DNA of 64,000 bases from Actinomycetota bacterium (GTDB taxonomy: Bacteria; Actinomycetota; Acidimicrobiia; Actinomarinales; Actinomarinaceae): positions 212,513-276,512 of the forward strand of contig JACNGE010000014.1 of assembly GCA_014384285.1 (NCBI GenBank). Reading direction: 5' to 3'. Below the pieces are notes generated by a model. The model was not told the origin of the DNA. It was given only the letters and a program-made list of their open reading frames with translations, and did no database searches. Of the stretch, positions 17,000 through 50,257 are shown one piece after another; position 1 is the first letter of the stretch, and each line of letters starts with the position of its first letter. The position numbers were made by a program, and so were the translations under genes.

Positions 17000-17165
17000 T
17001 TATAATAACGAGCAAATTAAGCGCCAGACCTTTAATTAGGTGACGAGGAAGTATGTTATCGAAAATTCGGCGGATGCATACTCGGCTCTACGGTCGTAAT
17101 AAATTGTTTAAAAACAGAAAGAAACTTCTGAACAGAGACAGTTTAAAGTAGTCTTATTTCAACTT
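17000..17165 (+). ncRNA. glmS_ribozyme: glmS ribozyme (GlcN6P-responsive self-cleaving riboswitch) in the glmS 5' UTR
   Basis: Conserved core strings read directly from the sequence: AGCGCCAGA (cleavage site, predicted between A17020 and G17021), GGUGACGAGGA, UUAUCGAAAAUUCGGCGGAUGC, CGGCU, then the P3/P4 region UUCUGAACAGAGA. It lies immediately upstream of glmS. Confidence 0.8.
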
Positions 17166-17188
17166 GCTCGTTGGAATGGAGAAATTAT

Positions 17189-18985
17189 ATGTGTGGAATT
17201 ATTGGCTATTCAGGCCAAAGAAAACCTTTACCAATACTTTTAGATGGTTTGTCAAGGTTAGAGTATCGAGGATATGATTCAGCTGGTATTGCAATTATTG
17301 ATGGAGAAAGTTTAACCATTGAGAAAAAAGAAGGTAAATTACAAGTATTAAAAGACCATCTTGTAGATAAAGAAATTAATGGAAATATAGGTATAGGCCA
17401 TACAAGATGGGCTACACATGGAGTGCCAAGTGATGAAAATGCGCACCCACATTATGACAACAATCAAGATTTTGCAATAATTCATAACGGCATAATTGAA
17501 AACTATGCCGAGATGAAAGAAGTATTGCTAAATGAAAATTATGAGTTTAAATCGGAGACCGATACTGAGGTAGTTGCTGTTGAACTAAGCAGACAATGGA
17601 CAGGCAATCTCTTGGAGACAGTTTGTAATGTTGCCAAAGGACTTGAGGGAACATATGCACTAGTTGTAATCACAATAAAGGATCCAGAAACTATAGTAGC
17701 TGGAAGAATGATGAGTCCACTAGTCCTAGGAGTTGGAGAGGATGAAGTTTTTCTTGCTTCAGACTCAGCAGCAATCCTCGAACATACTAACAAAATGATA
17801 TTTTTAGAGAATGGAGATTTTGTCGAAATTAAAAATGGTCAGTATCAATTATTTGATATAGACATGAATGAAATTACCCGAGAAGTACAACTAATTGATT
17901 GGGAGGTATCTGAAGCAGAAAAATCTGGTCATGATCACTTTATGTACAAAGAAATTTTAGAACAATCAGAAGTCATCGAAAGAACAATAACTGGAAGGTT
18001 AGAATTAGGAAGCGAGCAGATTCCGATTGACTTAGAACATGCAAAAAAGTTTGAAAAAATATGGATAGTTGCATGTGGGACAGCTTATCATGCAGGATTA
18101 TTTGGAAAAGATTTATTTGAAAAAGTATTAGGCATTCCAGTTAGTGTTGAACTCGCTTCAGAGTTTAGGTACAGAGAGCCCATAGTTGGCAAAAATGATT
18201 TAGGAATCGTTATTTCTCAATCTGGTGAAACTATGGATACCATCGCAGCAACAGAACTGTTGAAAGATAATGGCTCTCATGTATTGGCCCTTGTCAATGT
18301 AGTAGGAAGTTCTCTAGCGAGAATGGCCGATAGTGTGTTATACCTCCATGTTGGACCCGAGATAGGAGTCGCATCTACAAAAGCTTATTTAGGTATGCTT
18401 GTTGGGCAGCTTCTTCTTGCTAAACATTGGGATGAATTTAACAAGCTAGAAACCTCTTTTGATGAGATAAGCGAGCTACCTTTCCTCATAAAGAAAGCTT
18501 TAGAATGTGAACCGCAAATTAAAGAAATATCAAAATCAATAAATGATAAAAAAGATATTTATTTCATCGGTCGAGGGCTCGATTACGCTTTAGCTGCTGA
18601 AGGTGCATTGAAATTGAAAGAGATTTCATACCTACATGCTGAGGCCCTTGCTGCTGGAGAACTTAAACATGGCACTCTTGCCTTAATTGAAAAGGGTACA
18701 CCAGTGGTAGTTACAGCCAGCCAACACCATTTACTAGACAAAACAACAAGTAATGTACAGGAGGTTAAAGCTAGAGGAGCATATGTGATTGCTATAGGAG
18801 ATAATTCTTCAAAGAAGCTTCAAGACATTTCTGATAATTATGTCACCCTCCCTGAGGCAAGTGAAATGTTATCAACAATCATTTCAATAATCCCTCTACA
18901 GTTTATTGCATATCATGTAGCAAACTTAAATGGTGAGTCTATTGACCAACCCCGTAACCTTGCCAAATCTGTGACAGTGGAGTAA
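17189..18985 (+). CDS. glmS: Glutamine--fructose-6-phosphate aminotransferase
   Basis: MCGIIGY... gives the N-terminal nucleophile Cys2. Two SIS domains follow. The ORF-track start at 17171 adds 6 spurious residues. Confidence 0.95.
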   Translation: MCGIIGYSGQRKPLPILLDGLSRLEYRGYDSAGIAIIDGESLTIEKKEGKLQVLKDHLVDKEINGNIGIGHTRWATHGVPSDENAHPHYDNNQDFAIIHNGIIENYAEMKEVLLNENYEFKSETDTEVVAVELSRQWTGNLLETVCNVAKGLEGTYALVVITIKDPETIVAGRMMSPLVLGVGEDEVFLASDSAAILEHTNKMIFLENGDFVEIKNGQYQLFDIDMNEITREVQLIDWEVSEAEKSGHDHFMYKEILEQSEVIERTITGRLELGSEQIPIDLEHAKKFEKIWIVACGTAYHAGLFGKDLFEKVLGIPVSVELASEFRYREPIVGKNDLGIVISQSGETMDTIAATELLKDNGSHVLALVNVVGSSLARMADSVLYLHVGPEIGVASTKAYLGMLVGQLLLAKHWDEFNKLETSFDEISELPFLIKKALECEPQIKEISKSINDKKDIYFIGRGLDYALAAEGALKLKEISYLHAEALAAGELKHGTLALIEKGTPVVVTASQHHLLDKTTSNVQEVKARGAYVIAIGDNSSKKLQDISDNYVTLPEASEMLSTIISIIPLQFIAYHVANLNGESIDQPRNLAKSVTVE

Positions 18986-32356: not shown

Positions 32357-33161
32357 AAATATTTACTATCAGGGTTCCGAAGGGTCTTATTCAGAATCTG
32401 TATTAAGAAGCTATTTCCCACAGAATAGCTATATTCCTTGTCAAACATTTAAAGAAGTTGTTACACAGGCAGGGGATGAAAATTATGGCTTACTCCCAGT
32501 TGAAAACTCACTTGTAGGAACCGTAGTTGATTCATATGAGAACTTGATAGAAAGTGAATTATCAGTTTATGGAGAATTTAAGAAAAAGATAACTCATGCT
32601 CTCATCGGGTTAAAAGACTCAAAAATAGAAATAATTGATAAGGTCATTTCGCACCCTCAAGCTCTTCAGCAGTGCAGTAACTATCTTCAGACCATAAATG
32701 TAGAGTTACAGCCTGTATTCGATACTGCCGGGAGTGTATTAAGTTTACTTGATGAAAACTCTAAAACTACTGCTGGTATTGCTGGTGAGCACTTTGAAGA
32801 TGATGAAAGATTTAATATTTTGAAAAAAAATATTTCAAATCATGTAGAAAACTACACTCGTTTTTTTCTTATTGGAAACAATGATCCTTTTCTAGATGTA
32901 GTTAAAGAAAAAAGATCAGCAGTATTAATAGCTGACGATAAGCCTGGGTCTTTGTTAGCCTCATTAAAAATATTTGAAGAGACGAATGTTAATCTCACAA
33001 AACTTGAATCGAGACCAATAATTGGCAGTCCATGGGAATATAAATTCTATGTTGACTATCAAAATTCAGTTGATGACATCGACATTAAGTTACAAAATAA
33101 ACTGAAGGATGTTACAAAAAAATTTAAGATAATAGGAAAATACGGTACAGTTAATCTTTAA
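32343..33161 (+). CDS. pheA: Prephenate dehydratase with C-terminal ACT domain
   Basis: 272 aa with a PDT domain (TRFFLIG) followed by an ACT domain (PGSLLASLKIFEETNVNLTKLESRP). Confidence 0.85.
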   Translation: MKKIKNIYYQGSEGSYSESVLRSYFPQNSYIPCQTFKEVVTQAGDENYGLLPVENSLVGTVVDSYENLIESELSVYGEFKKKITHALIGLKDSKIEIIDKVISHPQALQQCSNYLQTINVELQPVFDTAGSVLSLLDENSKTTAGIAGEHFEDDERFNILKKNISNHVENYTRFFLIGNNDPFLDVVKEKRSAVLIADDKPGSLLASLKIFEETNVNLTKLESRPIIGSPWEYKFYVDYQNSVDDIDIKLQNKLKDVTKKFKIIGKYGTVNL

Positions 33162-34224
33162 ATTTCCAACTAGAACCAGATTCACTATCTTCGATTGCTA
33201 TATTCAGATTATCAAGTAAGTCACGAATCTCATCAGACTCGCTATATTTTTTTTCATTTCTAAATTTATTCCTTAACTCAATAATTCCTTGAACTGTACT
33301 ATCGAAAAGTGTGGTGTAGGTCTGATTATTTTTCAATTCAAGATTTAATTTTGCTACTTCTTTTTTAAGTATGTTTAAATCAGTTTCATTACGCTTACCT
33401 TGCTTATTGCTTAAGTCAGTTTTTTCTGGCCTAGGGAGAATATCTTGTAAATCACCTAAAGGATACTCAATTCCTCCTCTAAAACTAGTTTGTCCCAACT
33501 TTGTAATTGTTGTAACCTCACCAATGCCTTGCACAGTAAAGGTCTTTTTAGATCCATCTATTACTAGGGCAGTATGTTCATCTATTCCCAATATATTCGT
33601 ATATTCAGAGGATAGAAGATTATTCAATCTGTTCCTTCCTATATAGCTACAACTAGTGTCATGATTCCCACCCTCCTGATTATTAAAATGTGGGACAATT
33701 GTACAACTCAAACCATATAGATCTAATAAATTTAGACCTTTCTCCCAATAAGGATCCATACCAACTTTATATATCTCGTATACAGGAATTGACTTTTGTC
33801 CAAGGACAGTAGCTGCAGCACTTGAAAATACTGCATATTTTCCATTTCTAAGATGATTGGAAATAATGAGCGGAATTTCTGAATTTATCCATGTCTTAGA
33901 TGCATAGCTTGGACTACCTGGACCAGAAAATATGAAATTTGAATTTTTTAACTCTTCAAGCATTTCAAAATAATCAACAGAATCTATCGAGTCTTGAGTT
34001 CTTAAACTAGCTAGTTTGATATCGATTTGGACGCTTTTTTTAAAAAAAAGTTTTAATTTATCAACCAATACATCTGCATTTTCTTGAAAACCAAATGGAG
34101 TATCAATTAAATATGCATTAACTTGGTTATCAATTTGCTTCACAAAATCTCTATGAACAGAGACAAGATTTGGACTTGTTTCTCCTGAGCCCATAATCGC
34201 AATACTGCCTTTAGCTACTTCCAT
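33151..34224 (-). CDS. Peptidase S51-like / class I glutamine-amidotransferase-like hydrolase with C-terminal coiled-coil extension
   Basis: 357 aa. The N-terminal 230 aa resemble the cyanophycinase / dipeptidase E fold (IMGSGETS, candidate nucleophile in FSSAAATVLG). The C-terminal ~100 aa are charged and coiled-coil-like. Convergent with pheA, overlapping it by 11 nt. Confidence 0.4.
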   Translation of the reverse strand: MEVAKGSIAIMGSGETSPNLVSVHRDFVKQIDNQVNAYLIDTPFGFQENADVLVDKLKLFFKKSVQIDIKLASLRTQDSIDSVDYFEMLEELKNSNFIFSGPGSPSYASKTWINSEIPLIISNHLRNGKYAVFSSAAATVLGQKSIPVYEIYKVGMDPYWEKGLNLLDLYGLSCTIVPHFNNQEGGNHDTSCSYIGRNRLNNLLSSEYTNILGIDEHTALVIDGSKKTFTVQGIGEVTTITKLGQTSFRGGIEYPLGDLQDILPRPEKTDLSNKQGKRNETDLNILKKEVAKLNLELKNNQTYTTLFDSTVQGIIELRNKFRNEKKYSESDEIRDLLDNLNIAIEDSESGSSWKFKD

Positions 34225-34276: not shown

Positions 34277-35275
34277 ATGTTGAAGATTGTTGTTAAGTTA
34301 CTAGATGTTTTTACTTTAGATTACATTCCAAGACTTCCTATATCTGTCAGAACAAGATTATTTTATATTATTCTTCCATTGAGAAAATATAGAGACAAAA
34401 TTCGAATGAACAAACCAGTTAACCAAGTTACATATCAGGAGAGAGTTGAGTTTGCAAGAGTGTCAAGAGAAGGAATTAATTATTCTGGTATAAAACTAAA
34501 TGAATTCCATCCTGAAGTTGATATTACAAAAATCACAAATGCGAAATTTAACACCCATAAACTTACTCCAAAGAATCCAAAAAGTGATGTTTATGGAATT
34601 TATTTTCATGGAGGCGGTTATTACTCTGGAAGTGTAATCTCTCATAAAAATCTTCTATCTCAAATTACTGCTTCAACAAATATGGTGACATATATATTTG
34701 AGTACAGACTTTCACCTGAAGCAGTTTTTCCAAGCGCTCATGATGATTCAAAAGAAATAGTCACATTTCTAGATAATCTTGAAGTAGGTAAAGATTCTAT
34801 CTGGATTGGAGAGTCAGCTGGTGGTGGACTTGCTACTGGATTATGTGTGGATGACTCATTTAAACTAAGACCGAAGAAACTTATTTTGATGTCTCCTTGG
34901 CTTGATTTATCTAATAAGAATAAAGACAGAAATTATCTCAAAAATAAAGACATCCTAATTCTCCTTGATGGCATGCATATGATGGGAGAGTACTATGCAG
35001 GAGAACATGACCCTTCAAATCCAATTCTTTCTCCAGTTTTTGCTGATTTTAAAGAATTTCCAGATGTGTTAATTCAGGTTTGCTCCAACGAGCTACTTTA
35101 TAACGATGCAGTTGAATTTAGTAAAAAACTAGAGACCATAAATAGTAATTTTGAATTACAGGTTTGGGATAACTTATGGCATGCTTGGCAATTTTTTCCT
35201 ATAAAAGAAGCCGAAGATGCTCGAGAAAAAATAGTAAAGTTTGTTAACAGTGAGTCTTATTCCTCATCTAAGTGA
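34277..35275 (+). CDS. Alpha/beta-hydrolase, esterase/lipase (hormone-sensitive-lipase-like)
   Basis: Oxyanion motif HGGGY and nucleophile elbow GESAGG. The N-terminal ~45 aa are uncertain, since the true start may be the internal Met before NKPVNQ. Confidence 0.6.
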   Translation: MLKIVVKLLDVFTLDYIPRLPISVRTRLFYIILPLRKYRDKIRMNKPVNQVTYQERVEFARVSREGINYSGIKLNEFHPEVDITKITNAKFNTHKLTPKNPKSDVYGIYFHGGGYYSGSVISHKNLLSQITASTNMVTYIFEYRLSPEAVFPSAHDDSKEIVTFLDNLEVGKDSIWIGESAGGGLATGLCVDDSFKLRPKKLILMSPWLDLSNKNKDRNYLKNKDILILLDGMHMMGEYYAGEHDPSNPILSPVFADFKEFPDVLIQVCSNELLYNDAVEFSKKLETINSNFELQVWDNLWHAWQFFPIKEAEDAREKIVKFVNSESYSSSK

Positions 35276-36003
35276 TGTAAAGCAAAGCCAAATGGAAGTT
35301 CTAAACGATTTTCTTTCATAATTTTATCGTTTGTAAGCAGTTCCTTGGTTACTCCATCCTGAGTTATAGATCCACCATTAACAACTATGCTTCGAGGACA
35401 GATTTCTAGTGCCATTGGTAAATCATGTGTGACGAGTATTATTGAAATTTCCAGAGATAAAAGTATATCAATTAATTCTCTTCTTGATGAAGGATCAAGG
35501 TTAGAGCTAGGTTCATCAAGGACAAGTAATTGAGGTTTTGAAGCCAAAACACTAGCAATTGCAACTTTTCTTTTTTGGCCAAAACTTAAATGATGAGGTG
35601 CTTTATTTTGATATTTATTCATACCCACCATATTTAGCGCTTCGACGGCATTTTTCATACTAGCTTCATCTGAAAAGCCAAAATTTTTTGGTCCAAACAT
35701 GACATCTTCTAAAACAGTAGGCATGAATAGCTGGTCATCGGGGTCTTGAAAAACAACACCAACTGTTTTTCTGATTTGAGCCAGATTATCTTCTATGAAC
35801 TCCATATTGTCTAACTTAATAGAACTGTCCATAGCTCCTAATATCCCATTTAAATGGAGAATCAAAGTAGTTTTGCCTGCCCCGTTTGGACCTAATATCC
35901 CTAATGAGTCACCTTCATCAAGGTTAAAACTTATGCCATTTAGAGCTTTGTACCCATCAGGATATTCGTATGTTAAATTTGAAATTTCTAAATATTTACT
36001 CAT
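35257..36003 (-). CDS. ECF / cobalt-type ABC transporter ATPase (CbiO/EcfA family)
   Basis: 248 aa with Walker A GPNGAGKTT, signature LSFGQKRKVAIA, and Walker B LLVLDEP. Confidence 0.8.
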   Translation of the reverse strand: MSKYLEISNLTYEYPDGYKALNGISFNLDEGDSLGILGPNGAGKTTLILHLNGILGAMDSSIKLDNMEFIEDNLAQIRKTVGVVFQDPDDQLFMPTVLEDVMFGPKNFGFSDEASMKNAVEALNMVGMNKYQNKAPHHLSFGQKRKVAIASVLASKPQLLVLDEPSSNLDPSSRRELIDILLSLEISIILVTHDLPMALEICPRSIVVNGGSITQDGVTKELLTNDKIMKENRLELPFGFALHHLDEE

Positions 36004-36767
36004 ATTTGTAGATCCATAATCAAAACTATTATTGATATAAGTGTGAGTAATACTAGGTAGTTGGAATTGTTATATTCTCTATCTTGGAGTTCAATGACTC
36101 CGTTAAATCCTCTTGAGACCATAGAGAGGTAAACCCTTTCTCCACGCTCATAACCCCTTATTAACATTGCTCCAGAAGCATAAGCGATTGGTAAAAGTGT
36201 CTTTATACCTTTTTCTATATAACCCCTAGATTGCATTGAAATTCTGACACGCTTAAATTCATCAATAAAAACATCTATATATCTTATAGAGAAGGACATT
36301 ATTGCAATTATTATTGAAGGGAGTTTTAATTTTTGTAGACCGTATATAATTTCAATATTTGTTGTAACTGCAGTTAAAACAATTCCCATAGATACTCCAG
36401 CTGTAGCTTTAAAGAGAATTGCAGACATTTCCAGCAGACCTGTTTTATAAATATCTAAAGAAAAAAAAGTAAATACCGCATCATTATTACCACTGCTTAG
36501 AAAGGGGAGGAAGATAGCAAATAGCACAAATGGGATGTCGATGGTAAGACGTTTTAGATAAGTTTTAACTGGAATTCTGGAAAATTTAATTATAAGCAAC
36601 ACAATGAGCGCGTGAGAAATTATTTGAAAAGGATTTATAATTTTTGAAAAAGCAATAGAGACAACAATTAACAAAGTGGCGAGAATTTTAGATTGTGGGC
36701 TTAATGTATAAAGTATTGATTCATCATGAAGGGAAAGATGGTGGGAGTGGGTTGTTTGCATATACAT
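36000..36767 (-). CDS. ECF transporter transmembrane T component (CbiQ/EcfT family)
   Basis: 255 aa polytopic membrane protein with CbiQ-like sequence. Translationally coupled to the downstream ATPase. Confidence 0.7.
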   Translation of the reverse strand: MYMQTTHSHHLSLHDESILYTLSPQSKILATLLIVVSIAFSKIINPFQIISHALIVLLIIKFSRIPVKTYLKRLTIDIPFVLFAIFLPFLSSGNNDAVFTFFSLDIYKTGLLEMSAILFKATAGVSMGIVLTAVTTNIEIIYGLQKLKLPSIIIAIMSFSIRYIDVFIDEFKRVRISMQSRGYIEKGIKTLLPIAYASGAMLIRGYERGERVYLSMVSRGFNGVIELQDREYNNSNYLVLLTLISIIVLIMDLQI

Positions 36768-36799: not shown

Positions 36800-37216
36800 T
36801 TATTTACAGTTTTCGCAGATTCCAGAGTAGATAAAATTATTGTTAATACTTGTAAATTTTGTTTCCTTCATTAATAATTTATTAATTTTTGTAAATGTTT
36901 CAAAGCTTATATCAATGATTCTTTCACAGCTCATACAAATTAAGTGCATGATATTCTCTTCATTTCGAAGGAAATAAATTCCTGAACCGTGTGCTCGGTG
37001 CAAGTGCGCTATTAATCCAATCTGTCCAAGTAATTCTAAAGTTCTATAAACTGTAGCAAGGTCAACTTCAGAGCTCTTCTTAGTTACTTTTTTGTACAAT
37101 TCGTCAACCGTGAAGTGTGCATGCCCAGAATTTTCAAGAATTTCACAAATAAGCTCTCTTGATTTAGTAACCCTGTGACCCTTTTTCTTAATCTCGCCTA
37201 TCAAGTTCATATTCAA
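36800..37216 (-). CDS. Fur-family metalloregulator (Fur/Zur/Nur/PerR; specificity not assignable)
   Basis: 138 aa with a winged-helix N-terminus, an HxH site (HLHRAHG), and two CxxC pairs (CMSC, CENC). Confidence 0.8.
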   Translation of the reverse strand: MNMNLIGEIKKKGHRVTKSRELICEILENSGHAHFTVDELYKKVTKKSSEVDLATVYRTLELLGQIGLIAHLHRAHGSGIYFLRNEENIMHLICMSCERIIDISFETFTKINKLLMKETKFTSINNNFIYSGICENCK

Positions 37217-37249
37217 AGTATAATTTACTTAACTACAAAAATTATTTAT

Positions 37250-37723
37250 ATGAAAAAATCAATTTTTAGAATACTCAATAGGTATAGCCTTATATATCTG
37301 CCAGTCGGTTGGATTGTTGGGTTGGCAATAATTTTTATAACATTTGAACCATTCGCTGTTCTTTATTTTTTAAGTTTTGTGGTTATTGGTGCTTTTTTTG
37401 GTTTATATTTATTTACTTCTAATAGGGGGCTGGTAATTGATGATCATAATTTTTCTGCAAGCAGGTTTACAATTATTGAGTTTTATTCAGACTATTGACT
37501 AGGTTGTAGTGCATCAAAATTCATAGTTAATGAGTTTAAAAAAAAGAAACCAGATATTCCTGTTGTTTCGGTGAATGCTTCAAAGAAGAATTACAATGAC
37601 ACAGTAGCAAAGTATAATTTGGAGTATACCCCAACCTATGTTCTTGTAGACAGAAATGCAGAATTGGTTTACAAAAGAGTTGGTAATTTTAAGTTAGAGA
37701 AGTTTGAATCCCTAACAACTTGA
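37250..37723 (+). CDS. Candidate selenoprotein: membrane-anchored thioredoxin-fold thiol:disulfide oxidoreductase (TlpA/ResA-like) with in-frame TGA giving a UxxC motif
   Basis: Two TM helices are followed by ...FTIIEFYSDY-TGA(37496)-LGCSASKF...PVVSVNAS...YTPTYVLVDRNAELVYKRVGNF. This aligns to the ResA/TlpA pattern (FLNFWGTWCEPCKKEFP...VEIVAVNV...LPTTFLID) with the TGA exactly at the first Cys of CxxC. The 74 codons after the TGA stay open in the same frame and contain no in-frame start other than a GTG that would bisect the fold. Confidence 0.4.
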
Positions 37724-38059
37724 CTAAGCTATTTTATCTCCAATCGAAGCTTTGTCTTCTGGTGATATTAGATTGACTGTATTATCTTTTGAAATTGAGC
37801 CTAAAATTAAGCACTGACTTATAATTGGACCAATTTGTTTGTCTCCTAGGTTGATTACTGCGATACACTTTCTGCCAATTAAAGATTCTTTTTTGTAATT
37901 TGTAATTTGAGCACTTGTTTTTTTAATCCCAATATTCTCACCAAAATTTATCTCAAGAACGTAGGAGGGATTCATAGCTTCAGGAAAATCTTGTACGTCT
38001 ATTATTTCACCAACTCTTATATCAAGTGAAGCGAAATTATTTAAGTTTTCTTTAACCAT
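37724..38059 (-). CDS. tRNA-binding domain protein (CsaA/Trbp111-like, EMAP-type OB fold)
   Basis: 111 aa with DIRVGEI...KKTSAQI...KCIAVINLGDKQIGPIISQCLILG, typical of standalone tRNA-binding proteins. Confidence 0.7.
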   Translation of the reverse strand: MVKENLNNFASLDIRVGEIIDVQDFPEAMNPSYVLEINFGENIGIKKTSAQITNYKKESLIGRKCIAVINLGDKQIGPIISQCLILGSISKDNTVNLISPEDKASIGDKIA

Positions 38060-49968: not shown

Positions 49969-50257
49969 ACTTAAGAAGCTCTAAGTTTCCTTTTACCTTA
50001 ATTTTTTCATCGAACATTAAATCTTCCGGATGCTTAATATTATTTTTTAGTTCAAAAAAAGTAGCTTCATCCATCATAATTATTAGACTATCGTTTGAAT
50101 TTTCTGAGTCCTCAGAATATTTTAAATTTTCTAGATTTATCTTTGCAATATAATCTGATCCCGTTATTTGAAAATAAATTTTGCTTAGATTATTTTTATC
50201 TTTGACATTGAAACTATTAACGACAGATTTTAAGTGTTCTAATATTTCGCTGTTCAA
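49967..50257 (-). CDS. SCP2 sterol/lipid-carrier-like small protein, last gene of the sdh operon
   Basis: 96 aa ending ...DEATFFELKNNIKHPEDLMFDEKIKVKGNLELLK, matching the SCP2 C-terminal helix pattern. Overlaps the sdhB stop by 4 nt. Confidence 0.55.
   Translation of the reverse strand: MNSEILEHLKSVVNSFNVKDKNNLSKIYFQITGSDYIAKINLENLKYSEDSENSNDSLIIMMDEATFFELKNNIKHPEDLMFDEKIKVKGNLELLK

Follow-up and report, generated by a model that had tools for sequence, protein, structure and literature searches.

A 64,000-nt stretch of an Actinomycetota genome of the family Actinomarinaceae (GenBank assembly GCA_014384285.1, contig JACNGE010000014.1, positions 212,513 to 276,512 of the forward strand; the whole stretch is called the window below) was analyzed for a plus-strand gene that is interrupted by an in-frame TGA. 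The gene very probably encodes a 157-residue selenoprotein, in which a two-helix membrane anchor precedes a minimal thioredoxin fold whose redox motif is selenocysteine 83 (Sec83)-Leu-Gly-Cys86, and the UGA would be decoded as Sec with the help of a hairpin at 37518-37536. The initial annotation had already proposed a selenoprotein of the Sec/Cys-pair type, built of a two-helix anchor and a thioredoxin fold. That proposal is supported by TGA in 53 of 53 sequences, by homologs with TGC at the same column, and by the hairpin, which is of the selenocysteine insertion sequence (SECIS) type. The coordinates of all features are collected in Table 1.

Translation of 37250-37723 (+) gave MKKSIFRILNRYSLIYLPVGWIVGLAIIFITFEPFAVLYFLSFVVIGAFFGLYLFTSNRGLVIDDHNFSASRFTIIEFYSDY, an internal stop, LGCSASKFIVNEFKKKKPDIPVVSVNASKKNYNDTVAKYNLEYTPTYVLVDRNAELVYKRVGNFKLEKFESLTT and a terminal stop. 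The internal stop is the TGA at 37496-37498 and is the only one. Its protein context is FTIIEFYSDY-stop-LGCSASK, and 74 sense codons follow up to the terminal TGA. The translation confirmed that the in-frame TGA occupies the first Cys position of a CxxC-type motif, here U-L-G-C. Three further points of the initial annotation also held. The 74 open codons were found in the window and in the same number in all 53 sequences; the sole in-frame start 3′ of the internal TGA is a GTG at 37571; and the reading frame is bounded by the next gene, since the convergent neighbor (37724-38059, minus strand) adjoins the terminal stop directly.

TGA is an ordinary stop in the window and the code is standard, because TGA closes 14 of the 59 long open reading frames (ORFs) and is internal to none of them. 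The frames past these 14 stops shut within 0-28 codons. A reassigned genetic code (code 4 or 25) was therefore ruled out. Other selenoprotein genes were also looked for in the window. Among 79 TGA sites with open flanking frames, only 37496-37498 joins long non-overlapping flanks to a good hairpin.

Orthologs were collected by scanning one genome per GTDB species. The gene was present in 52 assemblies, nearly all labeled Candidatus Actinomarina or Actinomarinales, which together with the window gave 53 sequences. The window itself is assigned to Candidatus Actinomarina. TGA stands at codon 83 and is followed by exactly 74 sense codons in 53/53. No frameshifts or further stops were observed in the 52 loci, which come from single-cell and metagenome assemblies. 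The ratio of nonsynonymous to synonymous substitution rates (dN/dS) was 0.15 for the part before the UGA and 0.23 for the part after it, and nucleotide diversity decreased from third to first to second codon position on both sides of the TGA alike. Judged by these substitution patterns, the 74-codon downstream frame is under purifying selection. Throughout the species representatives examined, the gene is a universal and never-reverted predicted Sec target. One locus (L049:10001-10441, JBEROH010000022.1, Ca. Actinomarina sp.) carries U-L-G-F, the resolving Cys being replaced by Phe (TTT) while its TGA and SECIS are preserved. A monoselenol variant, incipient decay and an error of assembly are possible explanations.

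Protein databases were searched for relatives outside this set. Among 5.8 billion proteins, about 45 full-length relatives of 157 residues with 52-99% identity were retrieved, all of them showing "W" at the TGA column, along with five stub proteins that stop exactly at FYSDY. The closest relative, P0001 (99% identical), also reads the terminal TGA of the window gene as W (SLTTWLSYF). Because the terminal TGA is W in P0001, the W in the databases is attributed to gene calling of TGA with genetic code 4. A true Trp at the Sec column was ruled out on the same ground and by the DNA of all loci, which reads TGA. In the public databases (ENA/MGnify, Logan, JGI), the family thus occurs in two wrong forms (P0001-P0046, P0047-P0054, P0073-P0098). 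On short low-GC contigs, genetic code 4 yields a 157-residue product with Trp at the Sec column; on long contigs, an 81-92-residue stub ending in FYSDY is called.

The wider family was recovered by searching a profile hidden Markov model (HMM) of the Actinomarina family against 1.84 billion representative proteins. The proteins found are about 160 residues long and of the same build: behind a short N-terminus, in which the motif N-[QH]-Y-S occurs, come two hydrophobic helices and then the thioredoxin domain. Some of these distant members are CxxC (P0076, P0077, P0084, P0071, P0067 and others), and the rest are "WxxC". P0076 is a hypothetical protein of a Chloroflexota metagenome-assembled genome (MAG), and other CxxC members are named "thiol-disulfide isomerase/thioredoxin" by IMG. 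The codon at the TGA column was then read from the DNA of ten distant homologs. The seven "W" lineages (L056-L062, GC 27-45%) have TGA, as does Actinomarina, and the three Cys forms (L063-L065) have TGC. Trp encoded by TGG was never found at this column in the homologs; where TGA is not used, Cys stands instead. Read from the codons, this is a Sec/Cys pair, the standard signature of a selenoprotein family. The Cys-form homologs are single full-length proteins.

Two of the distant loci deserve separate mention. A distant TGA-bearing member from a marine lineage was found in JGI marine metagenomes (L053-L056:3001-3560, contigs up to 215 kb, GC 0.40). There, only an 83-residue stub is called and about 350 nt are left uncalled, and the neighbors are HEAT-repeat and MFS_3 genes, not Fur. 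In a Chloroflexota MAG (L065:2516-2542, JAADYZ010000297.1), the Cys form retains 5/7 of the stem pairs described below together with a GUUG loop.

Folding of the sequence downstream of the UGA for a hairpin with an apical G/U gave a 7-bp stem with loop AGUUA, located within the coding region. Loop G31 and U32, counted from the U of UGA, lie at 37526-37527. In a 29-nt piece, this hairpin is the minimum free energy (MFE) structure, with -4.7 kcal/mol and z = -3.4. The initial annotation had noticed no convincing bacterial SECIS (bSECIS) hairpin by eye. One does exist at 37518-37536, and it is conserved and covaries across lineages. The clean hairpin pointed out earlier at 37546-37569 forms in full only in the window, most orthologs forming 2-4 of its 8 pairs.

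Just 3′ of the UGA, TCAAAATTCATAGTTRATGARTT was almost invariant, third positions included, among 50 distinct Actinomarina genes. Synonymous diversity in codons +6 to +12 was 0.034, whereas the median over the gene was 0.44; in 20000 permutations the value of 0.034 was never reached. In this frozen stretch, Phe was encoded by TTC in 50/50 genes (13% TTC elsewhere in the gene), and Ile by ATA and Val by GTT in 50/50 each. All seven pairs are possible in all 41 distinct orthologs (AAUUCAU / AGUUR / AUGARUU).

The hairpin was also compared with the seven other TGA lineages. The protein reads K-P-x-V-D-R-L there, and the stem is AGCCUNN/NNAGGCU, with identical register. RNAalifold, run on 15 sequences from 8 lineages, predicted exactly the 37518-37536 helix, with compensatory double changes at 6/7 pairs. 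The fraction of paired cells was 96% in the true register and fell to 15-46% when the 3′ arm was slid by 1-3 nt. Apart from the UGA and the outer A-U pair, the sole bases that do not vary across the 8 lineages are loop G31 and U32 and, where the conserved Gly and Cys codons begin, G7 and U10. A covariance model was built from the seven non-Actinomarina lineages only. Its top match in the 64-kb window, on either strand, was 37514-37540, with 16.6 bits and a rough E of 0.02. The second-best match (50208-50233, minus strand, 14.6 bits) lies just past an sdhB-like TGA stop; it was rejected as a SECIS because its register is wrong and the frame past the stop closes after only 4 codons, and it is probably a chance match in AT-rich sequence.

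The published bSECIS model describes a loop of 3-9 nt, a stem of 4-16 bp and 16-37 nt from UGA to loop, with a G within the first two nucleotides of the loop and G or U after it, and an MFE of at most -7.5 kcal/mol (PMC13188914). The geometry of the hairpin lies within this description (5-nt loop, 7-bp stem, G-U at loop positions 2-3, 26 nt between UGA and apical loop). An Rfam scan of the window returned the glmS ribozyme only and no SECIS family match. A lower stem, GGUU (37502-05)/AACC (37548-51), is present in the MFE fold of the window sequence; it was not retained, its partner bases differing among orthologs.

With C put for the stop, the Pfam Thioredoxin model (PF00085) matched residues 71-152 at 28.7 bits, above the gathering threshold of 23.5. 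An AlphaFold2 model was computed on P0001, which has W at the Sec position and a 14-residue read-through tail, with a 46-sequence alignment. The mean predicted local distance difference test score (pLDDT) was 76.8. The model shows helices 2-31 and 34-57 and then the minimal thioredoxin fold, composed of strand 73-79, helix 85-99, strand 105-109, helix 116-122, strands 129-134 and 139-144 and a C-terminal helix. In the model, Sec83 lies directly before helix α1, where thioredoxins carry their first Cys, and Cys86 lies in the first turn of α1. T127-P128-T129 is, by model position, equivalent to the cis-Pro loop of thioredoxins.

When the model was compared with the PDB by Foldseek, classical thioredoxins were the best matches (target-normalized template modeling (TM) score about 0.75, root-mean-square deviation (rmsd) about 2 Å, E about 1e-6, probability 1.00). 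The score against the TrxA equivalog TIGR01068 was 19.7 bits, below the cut-off of 96.8, and the distant members scored 18-47 bits. For the window protein and P0001, the ResA, TlpA and DsbE models gave no match at E ≤ 1e-3, and no Pfam Redoxin or AhpC-TSA match was obtained. Likewise, the NCBIfam selenoprotein models SaoT (NF040730), HUIPC (NF047660), VPGUxxT (NF041383), GOS_C (NF045500) and TsoX (NF045809) did not match P0001 at E ≤ 1e-3. Among the distant members, only far sub-threshold TsoB/TsoX matches were seen, and two of them weakly matched the slr1796 thylakoid factor model (E = 1e-4 and 5e-3). The fold is closest to classical thioredoxin, and no curated family model covers the protein. 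The initial annotation had described a two-transmembrane anchor followed by a TlpA/ResA-like fold. The two-helix anchor is borne out by AlphaFold2; the TlpA/ResA part is not, given the lack of a model match and the plain thioredoxin neighbors.

The orientation of the anchor was considered from charge counts. The N-terminal tail MKKSIFRILNR contains four K/R residues. Across Actinomarina, this tail carries +4 to +5 and the loop between the helices has no positive charge. By the positive-inside rule, these counts weakly suggest an N-in/C-in anchor with the catalytic domain in the cytoplasm. In most distant members (P0071-P0128) the N-tail is uncharged and the loop carries +2 to +4, and the same heuristic suggests the opposite orientation, with the domain outside the cell.

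The proposed mechanism is as follows. The UGA at 37496-37498 would be read as selenocysteine during translation, and the hairpin at 37518-37536, from its sequence, conservation and covariation, would act as a bacterial SECIS that recruits SelB with GTP and Sec-tRNA(Sec). The product is most likely a membrane-tethered thiol/selenol-disulfide oxidoreductase, by analogy with thioredoxin and UxxC selenoproteins. By the same analogy, the Sec83 selenolate at the N-terminus of helix α1 would attack a substrate disulfide or an oxidized Cys. Cys86 would then resolve the mixed selenenylsulfide, leaving an intramolecular Se-S bond, which an upstream reductase would re-reduce.

The machinery for Sec insertion has been described for this genus. 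The genes selC, selA and selD and a divergent selB have been reported from 84/84 complete Actinomarina genomes, in which no ybbB was found; about five selenoproteins per genome, mostly uncharacterized, were predicted by deep-Sep (Nielsen and Lui, bioRxiv 10.64898/2026.04.03.716425). In the same preprint, the Rfam SECIS models gave nothing in Actinomarina and families were defined by identical first 20 residues; no thioredoxin-like family is described, and its supplement holds no selenoprotein sequences (bioRxiv 10.64898/2026.04.03.716425). The window gene is very probably among the predicted five or so.

Several observations weigh against the selenoprotein assignment. For the hairpin, its -4.7 kcal/mol when taken alone is weaker than the -7.5 kcal/mol of the published model, and a 65-nt stretch reaches -7.8 kcal/mol only with the non-conserved GGUU/AACC lower stem. 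Within Actinomarina no covariation was seen, the changes being only wobble-compatible (A-U to G-U and U-A to U-G). Most of the compensatory changes split Actinomarina from the other lineages, so that few independent events underlie them. The negative control also failed in part. The covariance model gave 15.2 bits at the homologous site of the Cys form L065, where 5/7 pairs are kept; in the remaining Cys forms, no more than 1 and 3 of the 7 pairs are left. Part of the SECIS signal is therefore shared coding sequence or possibly, in L065, a remnant of a former SECIS/Sec state. For the protein, the U-L-G-F motif of L049 (1 species) would be unable to form the intramolecular Se-S bond, and the topology suggested for Actinomarina conflicts with that suggested for the distant family members. 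For the machinery, the window and the 52 loci contain no tRNA, a motif scan for SelD and SelA turned up neither in the window nor over about 1 Mb of flanks in the orthologous loci, and the ten largest ORFs without an assignment proved to be of the ordinary housekeeping kind; the Sec machinery of this genome is taken entirely from the genus-wide report of the preprint. Selenium itself is placed at residue 83 from nucleotide sequence, and not at the protein level.

These last points bear on the alternative that the UGA is recoded to a residue other than Sec. A near-cognate tRNA (Trp or Cys) could read through it independently of SelB, or Cys could be carried on a tRNA(Sec)-like tRNA, producing a WxxC or CxxC protein. 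Such recoding would fit the indirect placement of selenium and the window and flanks devoid of Sec genes, and the W that databases show at the TGA column seems to speak for it, although that W comes from code-4 gene calling, as the terminal TGA of P0001 reveals. Against it, the homologs have Cys and never TGG-encoded Trp at this column; a hairpin of SECIS type, whose loop GU does not vary, is conserved at a fixed distance, which simple read-through would not require; and selA and selD, the makers of Sec-tRNA, have been reported for every complete Actinomarina genome. Recoding to a non-Sec residue is considered very improbable.

Termination at the UGA is a further alternative. In that case an 82-residue two-helix membrane peptide would be the functional product, with the thioredoxin domain synthesized only seldom or under ample selenium. 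An 81-92-residue product of just this kind is what gene calling gives on long contigs, and some truncated product is expected, Sec insertion being generally inefficient. On the other hand, the stretch of 74 codons past the UGA has the same frame and length in 53/53, with a dN/dS of 0.23, it completes a thioredoxin fold that the UGA would split, no start codon is able to express the downstream part alone, and the Cys-form homologs are made as one full-length protein. We regard truncation as the normal outcome as very improbable. The remaining alternatives are recent inactivation of the gene to a pseudogene and a TGT/TGC misread as TGA in sequencing or assembly; the initial annotation had named a pseudogene and a sequencing error, and one window alone could not rule them out. 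Both were excluded by comparison across genomes: an error would have to be shared by 52 independent single-cell and metagenome assemblies, which is not possible, and a pseudogene would not hold 74 codons under purifying selection. The TGA recurs in these assemblies of different species and in seven further lineages, with no frameshifts or extra stops, so that the probability left to a pseudogene or an error is close to nil. Decoding of the UGA as Sec thus remains by far the best reading of the gene.

Table 1. Positions in the window of the predicted selenoprotein gene, its elements and its neighbors
Feature	Position	Strand	Basis or remark
Predicted selenoprotein gene, complete	37250..37723	+	157 codons; ATG 37250, putative Sec-UGA at codon 83, true stop TGA 37721-37723
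Putative Sec-UGA codon, residue 83, first position of redox motif	37496..37498	+	TGA in 53/53 Actinomarina orthologs
U-L-G-C redox motif, predicted attacking Sec and resolving Cys86	37496..37507	+	L, G and C invariant but for L049
Frozen synonymous sites, codons +6 to +12 after UGA (S-K-F-I-V-N-E)	37514..37534	+	Synonymous diversity
bSECIS-type hairpin	37518..37536	+	5′ arm 37518-37524 AAUUCAU, loop 37525-37529 AGUUA, 3′ arm 37530-37536 AUGAGUU
Predicted N-terminal membrane anchor, hydrophobic helices 2-31 and 34-57 with tight E-P turn	37253..37420	+	AlphaFold2, hydropathy
Predicted minimal thioredoxin fold β-α-β-α-β-β-α, residues 73-157	37466..37720	+	Pfam, AlphaFold2, Foldseek
T-P-T, residues 127-129, proline loop before strand β3	37628..37636	+	Invariant in family alignment; model position
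TATAAT (-10-like) hexamer, 25 nt before the ATG of the selenoprotein gene	37219..37224	+	TATAAT or TATATTAT in all orthologous loci
Fur-family regulator, divergent	36800..37210	-	Pfam FUR E = 4e-28
Energy-coupling factor (ECF) T component CbiQ	36000-36767	-	TIGR02454 above cut-off
ECF ATPase, single	35257-36003	-	Next to CbiQ on the Fur strand

The neighborhood of the gene was compared among the same loci. The regulator encoded divergently upstream scored below the cut-offs of both the NCBIfam Fur and the NCBIfam PerR models. The ATG at 37210 is conserved in all orthologous loci and the TTG at 37216 is not, and this ATG is most likely the start of the Fur gene. Because the Fur start is taken as the conserved ATG 37210, the intergenic gap is 39 nt, and not the 33 nt given at first. 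The TATAAT hexamer in front of the selenoprotein gene is a putative promoter element, judged from its sequence. No CbiM/CbiN or S component was found adjacent to the CbiQ and ATPase genes.

The order ATPase-CbiQ-Fur (minus strand), selenoprotein (plus), CsaA-type tRNA-binding protein (minus) and flavin mononucleotide (FMN) reductase (plus) was found in 52/52 loci, and everything else within several kb was equally syntenic in all 52. Because the whole region is syntenic across the genus, the Fur/ECF adjacency is uninformative. The neighbors of distant homologs are different, namely AMMECR1, MFS_3 and a methyltransferase. A function deduced from the Fur, CbiQ and ATPase neighbors was rejected for these two reasons. 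The metal- or redox-linked locus suggested earlier from the Fur/ECF genes cannot be derived from this arrangement and remains a guess.

Elsewhere in the window, a glmS ribozyme (Rfam RF00234, 89.4 bits) was located at 17009-17155 (+), just upstream of a 604-residue ORF at 17171-18985 that is presumably glmS. A 357-residue ORF at 33151-34224 (minus strand) matched Pfam Peptidase_S51 at 27.7 bits, and its last 85 or so residues weakly matched the C-terminal region of cysteine-tRNA ligase (NCBIfam, E = 5e-6).

Candidatus Actinomarina is among the most abundant and most streamlined surface-ocean bacteria. A universal Sec target would help to explain why a genome of about 1.1 Mb retains four or more selenocysteine genes, and would tie fitness to dissolved selenium. 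The gene is one of the proteins able to explain the retention of the Sec machinery because it is a universal, never-reverted predicted Sec target in the genus. For annotation, it marks a blind spot: standard procedures report a stub of about 82 residues on long contigs, and the Mycoplasma code puts Trp for Sec on short low-GC contigs. The hairpin would be the first concrete SECIS for the genus, and could seed a covariance model for other Actinomarina selenoproteins.

A more far-reaching reading combines these points. The protein would represent a distinct, unnamed family of membrane-anchored seleno-thioredoxins that is obligately Sec in Actinomarina, with the anchor flipped relative to its Cys relatives so that the selenoenzyme, at the membrane of a rhodopsin-bearing cell, faces the cytoplasm. 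It would be a main selective reason for keeping the Sec machinery, and its SECIS, a stem with an NGUUR loop (+30 to +34), would be read by the divergent SelB. Taken as a whole, we consider this combination tentative and rather unlikely.

The protein was compared with known systems. TlpA, ResA and DsbE (CcmG) are likewise membrane-anchored thioredoxin-fold proteins with a CxxC-type motif. Their anchor is single and N-terminal, their domain lies outside the cytoplasm, and they contain an additional insertion of the Redoxin/AhpC-TSA type, whereas the Actinomarina protein has two helices, a predicted cytoplasmic topology and plain-thioredoxin structural neighbors. Classical TrxA (2e0q, 3hhv, 2tir) is closer. 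The TM-score and rmsd given above apply over about 95 residues, and the redox motif and the proline loop lie in the same place. However, identity is 13-24%, the N-terminal β-α unit is missing in the Actinomarina protein, and it has a predicted Sec for Cys, Tyr for Trp before the motif, and a membrane anchor.

The hairpin resembles the SECIS of Escherichia coli fdhF and the bSECISearch consensus in being a stem-loop with a small, G-U-containing apical loop that lies in the coding region just past the UGA. Unlike the fdhF type, the Actinomarina stem is AU-rich and weak (-4.7 kcal/mol), and no bulged U is evident. The loop GU of fdhF lies at +23/+24 from the U of UGA, and that of Actinomarina at +31/+32.

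Among marine selenoproteins, UxxC thioredoxin-fold proteins were among the commonest in the metagenomes of the Sargasso Sea (2005) and of Global Ocean Sampling (GOS, 2008), where the families "Trx" and "Trx-like 1/3" were described (PMC1088965, PMC2398784), and Trx (PF00085, UxxC) is listed in a 2026 review (PMC13188914). The Actinomarina protein agrees with these in its thioredoxin fold, the predicted Sec as first residue of UxxC, the Cys-form homologs, the SECIS-type hairpin just past the UGA and the marine origin. It differs from the Sargasso and GOS Trx families in its two-helix membrane anchor, which is absent from the descriptions in both papers (PMC1088965, PMC2398784). The GOS family "Trx-like 3", which is weakly cd02950-like, UxxC, marine-enriched and richer in Sec than in Cys sequences (PMC2398784), may well be the Actinomarina family, matched by description. 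The Actinomarina selenoproteome of Nielsen and Lui concerns the same genus, with universal Sec machinery reported. Marine UxxC thioredoxin-fold selenoproteins (2005-2008) and Sec use in Actinomarina (2026) were thus known before; the assignment of a thioredoxin fold with a two-helix anchor, the predicted genus-wide obligate Sec, the wider Sec/Cys family and the SECIS-type hairpin are new. The protein is of a fairly ordinary kind that standard gene callers mis-annotate, and this work refines and assigns the case while leaving the concept of marine UxxC selenoproteins unchanged.

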